DNA of 64,000 nt from an uncultured delta proteobacterium. GTDB taxonomy: Bacteria > Myxococcota > Myxococcia > Myxococcales > Myxococcaceae. Of the stretch, positions 17,485 through 22,699 are shown piece by piece. Made by a program: the position numbers and the translations under genes. Under the pieces are notes generated by a model. It had not been told where the DNA came from and searched no databases. It saw only the letters and a list, made by a program, of their open reading frames with translations. Position 1 is the stretch's first letter, and each line of letters starts with the position of its first letter. Location of the stretch: NCBI GenBank assembly GCA_963776345.1, contig CAVZMH010000015.1:416001-480000 (forward strand), written 5' to 3'.

Positions 17485-19261
17485 TCAGCCCCTCGGCCGC
17501 GCTGGGCTGGCTCCGACCGGAGGCTGCGCGAGCACTCCCCGGACCGCCGCCGCGATGCCCTCGGCCGACAGGCCGATCGCCCGCCGCTGGGTCCGCGCAT
17601 CCCCGTGGGGCACCGGCGCGTCGGGGAGCCCGAGCGTCCGCACGCGCAGCAGGAGCCCGCGCGTCGCGGCCAGCTCGAGGACCGCGCTCCCGAGCCCCCC
17701 GTGCAGGGTCCCCTCCTCCACCGTGACCACGTGCCCCGTGGCGCAGGCCTCCAGCACTCGCGCGGCGTCCAGCGGGAGGACGCGCGCATCGAGCACCGCG
17801 GTCGGGATCTCGAGCGCCTCGGCGGCCTCCAGCGCGGCGAGCCCCAGCGGTCCGAGCGAGACGATCGCCGCGACGGCGCCCTCGGGCCGCCGCAGCCAGC
17901 GCGCGCCGGCGACCGGTCCGGACTCGACCTCGATCCGCGCCGGCGTGGTGGGCAGCGTTCCGCGCGGGAAGCGGAACGCCGCGGGGCCGGGACCCGCGAG
18001 CGCCGTCTCCAGCACCGGGTCCACGTCCTCGCCAACGGTGGGGGCGTACAGCCGCAGGCCGGGCAACGGCCGGAGCAGGGCCAGGTCGTACGTCCCCTGG
18101 TGCGTCGCCCCGTCGGCGCCCACCAGCCCCGCCCGGTCGACGGCGAAGGTGACCGGCAGCCCGGGCAGCACCACGTCGTGGATGAGCTGGTCCACCGCGC
18201 GCTGGAGGAAGGTGCTGTAGATGCAGACCACCGGCCGCAGCCCGCGGGCGGCGAGCCCCGCGGCGAGCGTCACCGCGTGCTGCTCGGCGATGCCCGCGTC
18301 GTGCACCCTGGACCCGAAGCGCGCCGCGAGCCCGGTCAGCGAGGAGCCCTCGAGCATCGCCGGGGTCACCACCACCACCCGCCCGTCGCGCTCCATCGCC
18401 CGGCCGAGCGCCGCGGCCACCGCATCGGACCAGGTGGGCTGGCCGTGCCGGCTGCGGACCAGCTTGCCGTCGCGCATCTCGTACGGGCCCATGGCGTGGC
18501 CGCGGGTGGCGACGTCCGCCTCCGCCTCGGCGAGCCCGCGCCCCTTCTCCGTCCGCACGTGGACCACGACGGGCCGGCGGCTCCGGCGCGCCTCGACCAA
18601 GCGCCGCCGCGAGCTCGCCGAGCGCGTGCCCGTTCACCGGCCCGAGGTAGGTGAAGCCCAGCGCCTCGAAGAAGGCGCCGGCCCCGCCCCCGGCCAGCAT
18701 CCGCGGCACCGCCCCGACGTTCTCCGAGATGGACATCCCGTTGTCGTTCAGCACCACCACCAGGGGGAGCCCGCTCGCGCCGGCGTCGTTCAGCCCCTCG
18801 AAGGTGAGCCCGCCGGTGAGCGCGCCGTCCCCCACGATGGCCACCGCCCGGCCCCCTGCCCCGGTGTGCGCCCGGGCGAGCGCCATCCCCAGCGCCACGC
18901 TCACCGCGGTGCAGGCATGCCCGGCCGGGAAGGCGTCGAACGGGCTCTCGCGCGGGTCGAGGAACGGCGCCACCCCGGCCTCCTGCCGGAGGGTGTGCAT
19001 CCGCGGGCCGCGGCCGGTGAGGAGCTTGTGCGCGTACGCCTGGTGGCCCACGTCGAAGACCAGGTCGTCGTCGGGCGCGTGGAAGACGCGATGGAGCGCG
19101 ACGATGAGCTCCACTGCCCCCAGCGACGCGCCGAGGTGCCCGCCCACCCGGCCGCAGATGGAGATGATCTCCTGGCGCAGCTCGGCACAGAGGCGCGGGA
19201 GCTCGTCCTCGGGCAGCGCGCGCACGTCCCTCGGCGACAGGACGCGCCCGAGCAGGGTCAC
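17485..19261 (-). CDS. dxs: 1-deoxy-D-xylulose-5-phosphate synthase, split by a +1 frameshift near 18600 (probable sequencing indel)
   Basis: N-half GGHLGASLG, DVGHQAYAHK, GDGALTGG, NDN; C-half TEKGRG, GIAEQHAV, YSTFLQRA, DRAGLVGADGATH in the other frame. Confidence 0.9.
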
Positions 19262-20142
19262 GTGCTGCGCTCCACGCTGTAGCGGGCCAGCGCGGCCAGC
19301 GGGCCCGGTCTGGGCTCGAGCCCGCGCACCGCGGCCAGCGCCTCGTCCACCAGCGCCCGGGCACGCGCACGGGAGGCCTCGAGACCGAGCACCGCGGGGT
19401 AGGTGTGGCGCCCGGCAGCGGCGTCCGCACCGGTCGGCTTACCCATCGCCTCCGCCGAGGACGTCACGTCGAGCAGGTCGTCGGCGATCTGGAAGGCGAG
19501 CCCCACCGCGTCTCCGTAGCGTTCGGCCGCGGCCACCTGGTCGGGCGTGCCCCCCTCGGCGACGACGCCCAGCGTGCACGCCGCCCGGAGCAGCGCTCCG
19601 GTCTTCGCCCGGTGAAGCCGGGTCAGGTACGCCTCCTCGGCCGGGCGGTCCTCGGCGATGTCCAGCACCTGGCCGCCGACCATGCCCACCGCGCCGGCGG
19701 CCTGCGCGAGCCGCGACACCAGCTCCGCCCGCCGCGGCTCGGGCCCGGTGGCGAGCAGGGTGAAGGCCTCGGTGAGCAGCGCGTCGCCGGCGAGGATGGC
19801 CATCGCCTCGCCGAATACCTTGTGGCTGGTGGGCCGGCCGCGGCGGAGGTCGTCGTCGTCCATCGCCGGGAGGTCGTCGTGCACCAGGCTGTAGGTGTGG
19901 ACGTACTCGAGCGCGCAGGCCGCGTCCTCCGCCGCGGCGCCGGGCGCGCCGCCCCGGACCGCCTCGGCGAAGGCGAGGCAGAGCAGCGGGCGCAGCCGCT
20001 TCCCGCCGGCGAGCAGCGAGTACTCCATCGCCTCGACCAGCCGCCGGGGCGCGGCCTCCAGCCGCCGCAGCCGATCGGCGAGCAGCGACTCGACGCGCGC
20101 CCCGCGCGCCTGGAGCCATGCCTCGAGCTGGAAACCGCTCAT
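19258..20142 (-). CDS. ispA: Geranyltranstransferase / polyprenyl diphosphate synthase
   Basis: GGKRLRP, SLVHDDLPAMDDDDLRRG, GQ, KTG, FQIADDLLD. Confidence 0.93.
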   Translation of the reverse strand: MSGFQLEAWLQARGARVESLLADRLRRLEAAPRRLVEAMEYSLLAGGKRLRPLLCLAFAEAVRGGAPGAAAEDAACALEYVHTYSLVHDDLPAMDDDDLRRGRPTSHKVFGEAMAILAGDALLTEAFTLLATGPEPRRAELVSRLAQAAGAVGMVGGQVLDIAEDRPAEEAYLTRLHRAKTGALLRAACTLGVVAEGGTPDQVAAAERYGDAVGLAFQIADDLLDVTSSAEAMGKPTGADAAAGRHTYPAVLGLEASRARARALVDEALAAVRGLEPRPGPLAALARYSVERST

Positions 20143-20555
20143 GGCCGCAGCCCTCCCGACCGTCGCTCGACCAGCTCGCGCATCCGTCCGAGAAGCGCGT
20201 CGAGGTCGATGGGCTTGGTGAAGTAGCCGTCCGCGCCGGAGGCCAGCCCGGCCTCCACGTCCGCCCGGCCCTTCCGCGAGGAGACGAAGAGCACCGGCAG
20301 CTCGTGCAGCTGCTCGTTCCGCCGAAGCGCGCGGCAGAGCTCGAACCCGTCGATCCACGACATGTTGACGTCGAGCAGCAGGATGTCCGGCCGGTGCAGG
20401 TGGAGGCTGGAGATGAGCTTCACCCCGTTGGCGGCCTGGGAGACGTCGTAACCCTCGATCTCCAGGGCCATCGCCAGCATCTCCCGGGTGTCGCGATCGT
20501 CGTCGACGATGATCGCCGAGCGGCGAGGAGAGCCGTCAGAACGGGATGTCGTCAT
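20139..20555 (-). CDS. Single-domain response regulator
   Basis: IVDDD, LLDVNM, DGFEL, VSS, TKP. Confidence 0.9.
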   Translation of the reverse strand: MTTSRSDGSPRRSAIIVDDDRDTREMLAMALEIEGYDVSQAANGVKLISSLHLHRPDILLLDVNMSWIDGFELCRALRRNEQLHELPVLFVSSRKGRADVEAGLASGADGYFTKPIDLDALLGRMRELVERRSGGLRP

Positions 20556-20832
20556 CGTCGGTGCCCGTCGGAGCGGGCTTCGACGGCCCGCCCCGGGTGG
20601 GCTCGAGAGGGACGGTCCGGTCCCCGCCCTTGTGCTCCAGCAATTCCTGGACGCGGAGCTCGGCCTGCTGCAGCAGCGCCTCGCCCCGCTTCACCAGCTG
20701 GATGCCCTTCTCGAACTCCTCCAGCGAGTCCTCGAGGCTCAGCTGGCCCCCTTCGAGCTTCTTGACCACCTCCTCGAGGCGGTCCACGACGTCGCTGTAG
20801 CGCTCGCTGGGCTGCTCTTCTCGGGTGGCCAC
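20536..20832 (-). CDS. xseB: Exodeoxyribonuclease VII small subunit with C-terminal DDDDIPF tail
   Basis: LEEVVKKLEGGQLSLEDSLEEFEKGIQL...AELRV core; adjacent to xseA. Confidence 0.93.
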   Translation of the reverse strand: MATREEQPSERYSDVVDRLEEVVKKLEGGQLSLEDSLEEFEKGIQLVKRGEALLQQAELRVQELLEHKGGDRTVPLEPTRGGPSKPAPTGTDDDDIPF

Positions 20833-20893: not shown

Positions 20894-22699
20894 TCAGTCT
20901 CCCGCTGCGGGTTCGACCCGGGTGATGGTGGCCTCGGCCTCGTCGCACTCCCCGAGCGAGGCGCGCCCGGGCGGCGCCCAGCGGAGCCGAACCGTCGCCC
21001 CGGGCTGCAGCTCGCCGGCGCGGCGGACCAGGTGTCCGTCGTCCGTGCGGTGGACGACAGCGTATCCGCGGGCCATCACCCGGAGCGGGCTCAGCCCGTC
21101 GAGCCGGCCGGCGTGCATCTGCACCGCCCCCTTCGCCTGGGCGAGGCGGGCCCGCGCCACCCGCTCGAGCCGGTGCCGCGCCGAGACCAGGGCCGCGCCC
21201 TCGAGCCCGAGCCGCGCCCTCTGGACCTCGGCCAGCCGCCAGCGCAGCCGCTCCAGCCGCGCCCGGCGCTCGCCGAGCAGAGCCTCGGGGCGGAAGCGCT
21301 CCAGCCGGCCGCGCAGCTCCATCAGCCGCCCGCGCTCGCCCCGGAGCCGCTCGGTCCACAGCCGGCCGAGCGTCCGCTCCTGCTCGATGAGCCCGTGGCG
21401 GCAGCGGGTGACCTCCTGGCGCGGGTCGCGCAGCCGCCGCTCGTGCTGCCGGAGGCGCTCGCGAGCTCGCGCCACGGCGCCGCCGACCGCCTGCCGGAGC
21501 CGGGTACGTGCAGTCCGGAGGTCGTCGAGCAGCGCCTCCCGCTCCGGCGCGAGCAGCTCGGCGGCTGCGCTGGGAGTCGGCGCGCGCGCGTCGGCGACGA
21601 AGTCGGCGATGGTGAAGTCCACCTCGTGGCCCACCGCCGAGACCACTGGCACCGGGCTGGCGGCGATCGCCCGCGCCACGGCCTCCTCGTTGAACGTCCA
21701 GAGGTCCTCGGCGCTGCCTCCTCCGCGCGTGACGACGATGACGTCCACGTCGGTGCGCGCGAGCCGCTGGAGCGCCCGGACCACCTCGTCCGTCGCCCCG
21801 GGGCCCTGGACCCGGGCGTGGCAGAGAAGCACGGAGAGTCGCGGGTTGCGCCGGTGGAGCACGTGGAGGAAGTCTTGGAGCGCCGCACCCGAGCGGCTGG
21901 TCACCACGCCGATGCGCCGGGGCAGGAACGGCAGCGGCCGCGGAGGTCGGAGCCGGTTCTCGCCCATCAGCCCCTCGGCGATGAGCCGGTCCCGGAGCTG
22001 GGCGAAGGCGATCGCCAGGGCGCCGGCGCCGGACGGCTCGATGCGCTGGACGATGAGGTTGTACTGGCCAGCCTTCTCGTACACGTCGAGGTTGCCCTCG
22101 GCGACGACCTCCATCCCCTCTTCCAGGCGGAACCGGAGGCGCTGGACGACGCTGGCCCAGATCTTCACGTCGATGGAGGCGCCGGCGTCCTTGAGCTTGA
22201 AGAACAGGTGGCCGCTGGCGTGAGGCCCCCGGAAGTTGCTGACCTCCCCGCGGACCAGCACCCGGCGGAACCCCTCGACCAGCACGCCCTTCACCGCCTG
22301 GGTGAGCTCGGTGACGGTGAGCACGATTCGCTCGGGCGGCCGCGCGGCCGGGGTGGCGGCGGGCGTCTCGATGCGCACCACCTCGGTGGTGGAGGTCCAC
22401 CGGACGGCCGCTCCCCGCTCCCGCGGTCGCGACGGCGTGAGGTCGACGCGGACGGTCTCGCGGCTGACGGCGAGCTCGGTGCGGGGCTCGGGCTCGAGCG
22501 GCTCGACCTGGCCCCTCGACCGCGCGAGCCGCGGCGGCGGACCGACCGCGGGCGGCTCGACGTCCGGCGGCGGACCGGGAGCTCGCGGCGCTGCGGCCGG
22601 CGTCGCGGGCCTGCGCTCGACCCGGGCCTCGGGCTGACCGAAGAGGTCCCCCTGCTGCGTCGAGGGCGCGGACGGGACGAGGCTCTTGACCTTCTTCAT
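20894..22699 (-). CDS. xseA: Exodeoxyribonuclease VII large subunit with Pro-rich N-terminal extension
   Basis: OB fold (VRGEVSN, SGHLFFKLKD), IGVVTS, RGGGSAEDLW, SAVGHEVDFT, PTPSAAAE, LSPLRVMARGY. Confidence 0.93.
   Translation of the reverse strand: MKKVKSLVPSAPSTQQGDLFGQPEARVERRPATPAAAPRAPGPPPDVEPPAVGPPPRLARSRGQVEPLEPEPRTELAVSRETVRVDLTPSRPRERGAAVRWTSTTEVVRIETPAATPAARPPERIVLTVTELTQAVKGVLVEGFRRVLVRGEVSNFRGPHASGHLFFKLKDAGASIDVKIWASVVQRLRFRLEEGMEVVAEGNLDVYEKAGQYNLIVQRIEPSGAGALAIAFAQLRDRLIAEGLMGENRLRPPRPLPFLPRRIGVVTSRSGAALQDFLHVLHRRNPRLSVLLCHARVQGPGATDEVVRALQRLARTDVDVIVVTRGGGSAEDLWTFNEEAVARAIAASPVPVVSAVGHEVDFTIADFVADARAPTPSAAAELLAPEREALLDDLRTARTRLRQAVGGAVARARERLRQHERRLRDPRQEVTRCRHGLIEQERTLGRLWTERLRGERGRLMELRGRLERFRPEALLGERRARLERLRWRLAEVQRARLGLEGAALVSARHRLERVARARLAQAKGAVQMHAGRLDGLSPLRVMARGYAVVHRTDDGHLVRRAGELQPGATVRLRWAPPGRASLGECDEAEATITRVEPAAGD

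Follow-up and report, generated by a model that had tools for sequence, protein, structure and literature searches.

The C-terminal tip of SSB is usually regarded as SSB's own hub signal. Its partners read the terminal Phe, the carboxyl group of this residue and the upstream Asp (PMC10164576), and tip peptides alone are reported to bind RecO, PriA, PriC and chi (PMC7145534). The published copies of the tip that were found are confined to ssDNA-binding proteins, including those of phages and prophages. They include the ssDNA-binding prophage DUF669 proteins, which carry DDDIPF and are proposed to be mimics of the SSB C-terminus (PMC13687109), and Deinococcus DdrB, for which SSB-like behaviour was suggested from an acidic C-terminal patch (PMC2879517). 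Exonuclease VII (ExoVII) has been described for E. coli as an XseA4–XseB24 complex (8TXR; PMC10835039); according to this work, the C-termini of XseB are disordered and the length of the ExoVII arm changes by whole XseB sites. Binding to the beta clamp follows the consensus QL(S/D)LF, in which a Gly at position 2 reduces the affinity without abolishing it (PMC11139829).

No publication on an SSB-type XseB tail or on a clamp motif in XseA was found in the full-text literature, a scope outside which most subscription journals and supplements lie; within it, the statement of an earlier sequence-only reading of this DNA, that no description of such a tail was known, holds. The main text of the clamp-motif review (PMC11139829) mentions neither 'XseA' nor 'exonuclease VII', the string 'Xse' does not occur in an SSB-tail survey (PMC13490951), and 'Myxo' does not occur in the available text of an XseA family analysis (PMC3439923). 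Such tails could be visible in the supplementary alignments of PMC10835039 and PMC3439923.

An SSB-type tip at the end of XseB

The genes at the locus are arranged in the order xseA, xseB, receiver, polyprenyl synthase, dxs and tlyA. The dxs gene (approx. 17485–19261 of the window, i.e. of the whole 64,000-nucleotide stretch analysed; minus strand) is split by a frameshift near position 18599. As the contigs of all four other sequencing runs are one base shorter there, this is probably an assembly error in the window. The features around xseB are as follows.

20536–20832, minus strand: xseB, encoding XseB of 98 residues (PF02609 over residues 13–62, and TIGR01280)
20635–20832, minus strand: XseB N-terminus and helical hairpin core (PF02609; E. 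coli XseB of 8txr, E 8e-14)
20560–20634, minus strand: XseB residues 67–91, VPL followed by a Gly/Pro/Ala linker (alignment and AF2 model)
20536–20559, minus strand: SSB-Ct-type tip DDDDIPF and stop codon (sequence; the host SSB ends in EDDIPF)
20139–20555, minus strand: single-domain receiver gene, with its ATG at 20555 inside the tip codons and a 20-nt overlap with xseB

The open reading frame at 20536–20832 is the sole XseB match of the host genome and scores 58.9 bits with PF02609 (cut-off 24) and 63.5 with TIGR01280 (cut-off 35). Judged by its profiles, the tail-bearing protein is a genuine XseB and not an SSB, with PF02609 as its sole Pfam match and no match to the OB-fold domain PF00436. 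An AF2 model based on 37 sequences contains a two-helix hairpin (helices 12–28 and 33–66), beyond which no secondary structure is predicted; pLDDT values are 53–60 across residues 71–98. The protein ends in ...PSKPAPTGTDDDDIPF-stop. Since the VPL that follows the hairpin aligns as the counterpart of the E. coli TPF, the tip represents an addition and not a displaced canonical motif. The linker after helix 2 varies between 26 and 64 residues among the XseB proteins of tail-bearing relatives, and the tail region is covered by contigs from all four other sequencing runs, with no indel listed. By sequence, the tail thus has every attribute of an SSB tip, i.e. an acidic run, I/L/V-Pro-Phe, a free C-terminus and a disordered linker of variable length. 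The sequence, the XseB profiles and the comparison with SSB bear out the original observation that XseB ends, after a linker, in an SSB-tail-like DDDDIPF.

The host contains a single SSB, which ends in ...GAAEDDIPF and shares its last five residues with XseB; the last 17 nt of xseB and ssb are also identical in this genome (G000). Among its 40,335 stop-to-stop frames of at least 60 aa, six end in [ILVP]PF, and acidic residues precede IPF only in SSB and XseB. A separate DNA pattern search for [DE][DE][IV]PF-stop retrieved exactly two places, again SSB and XseB, and the composition-based chance of such an end is about 2e-6 per gene. IPF is the SSB ending in 29/30 relatives. Both ends were read in 23 tail-bearing genomes, and 13 of these have an XseB that ends in VPF. 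The presence of VPF in XseB where SSB has IPF may reflect a different or weaker partner.

Distribution of the tip in Myxococcota

When the tip is defined as an acidic residue within three residues, followed by [IVL][PA]F and a stop, it is present on XseB in 48 of the 84 Myxococcales genomes scored, including the host, versus 1/41 elsewhere in the phylum. By family, the counts are 33/34 (f1), 1/1 (f2), 4/5 (f3), 6/12 (f4), 3/3 (f5) and 1/1 (f9, with DIAF), and the tip is absent from f6 (0/1), f7 (0/14) and f8 (0/13). In these counts, G112 (DDEDLPF) is tail-bearing, and G116 (GDFEPPF) and G027 (KDAPFYR) are tail-less, though perhaps with decayed tips; G130, where the contig ends, and G011, which has no XseB match, were left out. 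The sample includes all members of a first set of relatives with a match, and two further draws only in part. Named carriers are proteins of Myxococcus qinghaiensis, Pyxidicoccus, Archangium and Vulgatibacter. The tail is also found in 116 of the best 120 matches to an XseB profile, a proportion biased by the tail being part of the query profile, and it is absent from the XseB ends at the 17 non-myxobacterial loci examined. A quick tree built from 102 XseA cores requires eight changes of the trait, at least five of them forced by well-supported branches; thus, the tip was lost or gained repeatedly. The 2.7 Mb genome G089, nested in the host's family, combines an XseB without tip with a short XseA arm. 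The comparison of XseB C-termini across Myxococcota, which had been suggested together with a comparison to SSB, reveals a tip that is kept in many Myxococcales and that, in the host, matches the end of SSB.

The sequence-only reading had also named what would speak against it, a tail that is not conserved in relatives and arises from the overlap with the receiver gene. A related explanation, considered in the present analysis, derives the tail from a sequence copied from ssb. The 20-nt overlap itself is real. The receiver ATG lies within the GAT-GAC codons of the tip in all 12 genomes of the host's genus, which, like the 17 nt shared with ssb, favours a neutral by-product; elsewhere, the receiver starts downstream. 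The tip nevertheless persists in seven tail-bearing genomes in which no receiver follows xseB, and on one contig the receiver is deleted (joint 20144–20533) and the XseB tail kept. At 38 tail-bearing loci, the stop codon is TGA (23), TAG (12) or TAA (3), seven different codons are used at the I/V position, and Pro is likewise encoded by several codons. This variation in linker, codons and stop, together with persistence of the tip where the receiver is missing, shows that the tip is not an artefact of the overlap. The difference between the VPF of XseB and the IPF of SSB, together with the variable codons, indicates that the peptide is kept rather than the DNA, and that the tip is not a simple copy of ssb. 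The neutral explanation is thus largely refuted by the receiver-less genomes and the codon variation and is scarcely credible. The receiver gene is, to judge from these sequences, a neighbour of xseB and not the cause of its tail. Selection for the tip can be regarded as nearly certain, and the tail is a real, selected and lineage-wide feature. Many genomes of the order carry a receiver gene at this position, flanked by xseB and the polyprenyl synthase gene. Several others lack it or have it deleted, among them G003 and G007 from the host's own genus.

Further proteins with such ends were retrieved by a search for [DE][DE][IV]PF-stop in 20 genomes. An unannotated Myxococcota protein of approx. 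150 aa with a PxYGRSKG motif (L339:1483–1947, G000:C1; L330–L343) has no Pfam match, and the Atlas clusters closest to it comprise hypothetical proteins; it occurs in 14/30 genomes searched and carries an SSB-like tip in nine of these, but ends in EEEQF in the host. A UvrD/Rep-family helicase (L323:804–2999, G094) ends in GGGDDVPF in a genome whose XseB is tail-less. D-[DE]-I-P-F ends are present on a NYN/LOTUS-domain protein (L320:752–2041, G039), an unannotated protein (L325:2033–3022, G024) and an SSB-like protein without Pfam match (L327:761–1426, G031).

A clamp-type motif and a longer arm in XseA

The large subunit encoded next to XseB contains the OB fold, the catalytic residues, the helical arm and the C-terminal domain. 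Its features are as follows.

20894–22699, minus strand: xseA, ExoVII large subunit of 601 aa, likely start ATG at 22699 (profile and alignment)
22640–22654, minus strand: QGDLF, a sequence resembling the beta-clamp-binding motif in the N-terminal part of XseA (consensus from PMC11139829)
21092–21556, minus strand: XseA helical arm, 155 residues between anchors (alignment to E. coli)

XseA scores 435.9 with TIGR00237 (cut-off 180) and retains the equivalents of the catalytic residues D155, R205, H238 and D241 in an alignment to 8TXR (residues as given in PMC3439923). A single-sequence AF2 model of XseA has a mean pLDDT of 40.8, too low to be informative.

QGDLF is separated from the OB fold by a 104-residue spacer rich in Pro, Arg, Ala and Glu. 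A Q.[DESG]LF motif is present on XseA in 40/41 tail-bearing versus 15/29 tail-less Myxococcales and in 2/15 genomes outside the order, while a [DE]LF core is kept in 25/29 of the tail-less Myxococcales; for Q.[DS]LF, only about 0.003 matches are expected by background per 200 residues. The spacer between motif and OB fold has a median of 60 residues in tail-bearing and 8 in tail-less genomes. As far as the sequences tell, the clamp-type motif is older than the XseB tail. In the host, and in most members of its family, position 2 is Gly; other genomes have Leu, Ile, Phe, Ala or Val there, with QLDLF, QIDLF, QFDLF and QADLF among the variants of the relatives. The host beta clamp retains the pocket segments ETRYIL, ATDGHRL, FPEYQRV and VMPMRV. 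QGDLF fits the clamp-binding consensus and is considered a putative clamp motif. In Geobacteraceae (L133, L134, L137, L138, L142), outside Myxococcota, XseA begins with x-ELF directly ahead of the OB fold, which may be a truncated motif of the clamp type.

Compared to E. coli, the host XseA arm contains a 22-residue insertion. Arm lengths in the relatives are stepwise, near 133, 155, 178, 200 and 264 residues, and exceed that of E. coli by up to 131 residues. The additional 22 residues of the host arm would correspond to one more XseB site, i.e. seven per XseA. By the same measure, the 264-residue arm of G017 (L085), about twice as long as that of E. coli, would hold approx. 12 XseB per XseA. 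Arms of at least 150 residues are found in 42/43 tail-bearing genomes (39/40 plus three f5 genomes measured separately, with arms of 157 residues each) versus 2/29 tail-less Myxococcales. Six genomes have long arms despite the lack of a tail (2/29 in the order and 4/25 outside). On supported branches, five independent pairs relate tail and arm; on average 3.3 of them agree and none opposes (median p 0.25), and such independent contrasts are too few for significance. Both the clamp-type motif and the longer arm accompany the tail, and both had been missed by the sequence-only reading.

Possible functions and relation to known systems

The SSB-type tip on XseB, combined with a longer arm and a motif of the clamp type on XseA, suggests that this ExoVII is likely a clamp-tethered, tip-displaying nuclease. 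QGDLF, on a flexible leash of approx. 100 residues, would bind the beta clamp at nicks, gaps or forks. If the E. coli assembly holds, an arm coated by seven XseB per XseA would bring the number of tips to 14 in a DNA-bound dimer and to 28 in a tetramer. These tips may capture SSB-interacting enzymes, with RecJ, PriA, RecO and RarA as candidates, and take them over from SSB, which would couple single-strand resection to downstream repair or restart. In these bacteria, the XseA arm would then not only stiffen the complex but also hold the tips on display. Taken as a whole, this model of a clamp-tethered rod that displays many tips for SSB-partner repair proteins could go either way; for the tip itself, the likeliest function is to recruit SSB partners, with evenly balanced confidence.

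Several observations are consistent with such recruitment. The terminal Phe, the penultimate Pro and the free C-terminus, which SSB partners require (PMC10164576), are kept in the XseB tips, and a free, flexible tip that equals the last five residues of the host SSB should be read by the readers of this SSB. As the XseB C-termini are described as disordered on a rod with six XseB per XseA (PMC10835039), the tips would form a multivalent array if this assembly is conserved. The earlier proposal of such an array is thereby strengthened in its premises, namely the conservation of the tail, its SSB-tip architecture and the disordered ends on the rod, the last of these only under conserved assembly.

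The choice of partners proposed at that time has to be revised. RecJ, PriA, RecG and MutL are present in 5/5 genomes tested, RecO and RarA in the host, and RecJ, PriA, RecO and RarA are candidate partners of the tip. ExoI and RecQ had also been named, but ExoI was found in 0/5 genomes and canonical RecQ was not found in the host, where the RecQ-like helicase lacks a matched RQC domain. G000 contains a stand-alone 205-aa RQC-matching reading frame (L205:1450–2067, G000:C2), possibly frameshifted near its end, and among five genomes only G089 (L231, L204) has a full-length helicase frame that includes a strong RQC match. Chi was found in 0/26 genomes, orthologues of RadD and RNase HI were not found in the host with E. 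coli queries, and for the tip-binding C-terminal domain of DnaG as described in PMC10238739 and PMC5872125 no alignment was obtained. In a set of 13 tail-bearing and 13 tail-less genomes, RecQ_Zn_bind, RecC, SbcD_C and chi follow no pattern with the tail. At the PriA tip-pocket positions Trp82, Tyr86, Lys370, Arg697 and Gln701 (as listed in PMC5531588), the host PriA has Phe, Tyr, Arg, His and Gly, so that three of five are kept (alignment to 4NL4). The host RecG pocket retains two of four positions (R467 and R484), with R474 replaced by Ala and R614 by Glu, and RecO keeps some pocket positions (taken from PMC3152348) in a weak alignment. The recJ gene lies where it had been placed, about 19 kb away (approx. 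39.2–41.6 kb of the window), but a distance of this size is uninformative, and proximity was rejected as evidence.

In place of recruitment, the tails could act in cis: by occupying a tip pocket or the OB fold of XseA, they would hold the nuclease inactive, or free it from dependence on SSB, as long as DNA has not displaced them. Such regulation would agree with findings in B. subtilis, in which XseA and SSB co-purify and the SSB C-terminus is required for XseA foci, with direct binding left undetermined there (PMC3000357); with the binding of SSB's tip to unoccupied OB folds (PMC7145534); and with the proposal that E. coli ExoVII is autoinhibited via its OB folds (PMC10835039). Each XseA, however, offers one OB fold for 7–12 tails, most of which would be far from the head (the E. 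coli helical domain exceeds 20 nm), and neither the longer arm of tail-bearing genomes nor the same tip on unrelated myxobacterial proteins is explained. A co-fold of the 30-residue tail with the OB, catalytic and neck regions of XseA and two XseB cores scored 0.03 (mark 0.32) and carries no weight in either direction. Cis regulation is considered unlikely. The competition between tip and OB fold documented within SSB (PMC7145534) suggests another target, SSB itself: a brush of acidic-Phe tails could engage the SSB OB folds and either loosen SSB from ssDNA or draw ExoVII into SSB assemblies, rendering SSB-coated DNA digestible. A weak interaction of this kind would profit from multivalency and longer arms, and it would accommodate that several classical E. 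coli partners were not found in the host. Yet the documented contact is transient and lost on DNA binding (PMC7145534), and the strict conservation of Pro-Phe would be more readily explained by a defined pocket than by diffuse contacts, which makes this explanation quite unlikely.

The tip could finally be a general myxobacterial address tag that is read on SSB, XseB and other proteins by one lineage-specific receptor (a replisome factor, an adaptor or a protease), without recruitment of classical repair enzymes. The D-x-[IVLA]-P-F ends of the approx. 150-aa protein in nine of the 14 genomes that hold it and the DDVPF end of the G094 helicase favour this possibility, as does the result that chi, the link between SSB and polymerase in E. 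coli, was not found in any of the 26 genomes searched. We know of no lineage-specific receptor for such a tip. None was found in this analysis, and a tag equal to the tip of the host SSB would be expected to be read by ordinary SSB partners too; an address tag of this kind is accordingly judged very unlikely. Recruitment of SSB partners thus stays the preferred reading. Its furthest extension, offered tentatively and with the balance leaning against it, is that myxobacterial ExoVII constitutes a second genome-maintenance hub: a clamp-riding rod tens of nm long with 14–48 tips, their number tuned by XseB sites, that takes over the partners of SSB at resected sites. This would be the first known case of a chromosomal housekeeping enzyme that imitates the SSB hub of its own cell, and part of a phylum-wide use of the tip as a portable tag. 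A chromosomal nuclease with many tips would mean a different division of the SSB-partner network in a large order of bacteria, and the array is, for this lineage, a possible answer to the question left open in the ExoVII structure paper (PMC10835039), why the enzyme has a long XseB-coated arm.

E. coli ExoVII is the closest described system: both subunits match, and the catalytic residues, the XseB hairpin, the disordered XseB C-terminus and arm steps of one XseB site are common to both. E. coli XseB has 80 aa, while the host protein continues into a linker and an SSB-type tip; E. coli XseA has no long N-terminal extension (the match begins at its residue 8), where host XseA carries QGDLF and a spacer of approx. 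100 residues; and the host arm is longer by the 22 residues described above. In B. subtilis, ExoVII is likewise linked to the network around the SSB tail and directed to forks, but it is described as a client dependent on the tail of SSB (PMC3000357), whereas the host ExoVII bears the tail itself, together with a clamp-type motif. With respect to the clamp consensus (PMC11139829), XseA has Gln1, Asp3, Leu4 and Phe5 in a disordered N-terminus, comparable to the location of the motif in Hda, and differs in that the host family has Gly as the second residue.

The bacterial SSB tail (MDFDDDIPF in E. coli) shares with the XseB tail the disordered linker, the acidic run, I/V-P-F and the free C-terminus. 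The XseB tip sits on the structural subunit of a nuclease, however, and not on an OB-fold DNA-binding tetramer, it would be present in 14–28 copies versus four, it has no counterpart of the upstream Phe in the E. coli SSB tip, and it often reads VPF where the host SSB has IPF. DUF669 and DdrB are, like XseB, proteins other than canonical SSB that are proposed to mimic the SSB C-terminus. Both bind ssDNA, and DUF669 is prophage-borne, while XseB is a chromosomal housekeeping subunit without a DNA-binding fold.
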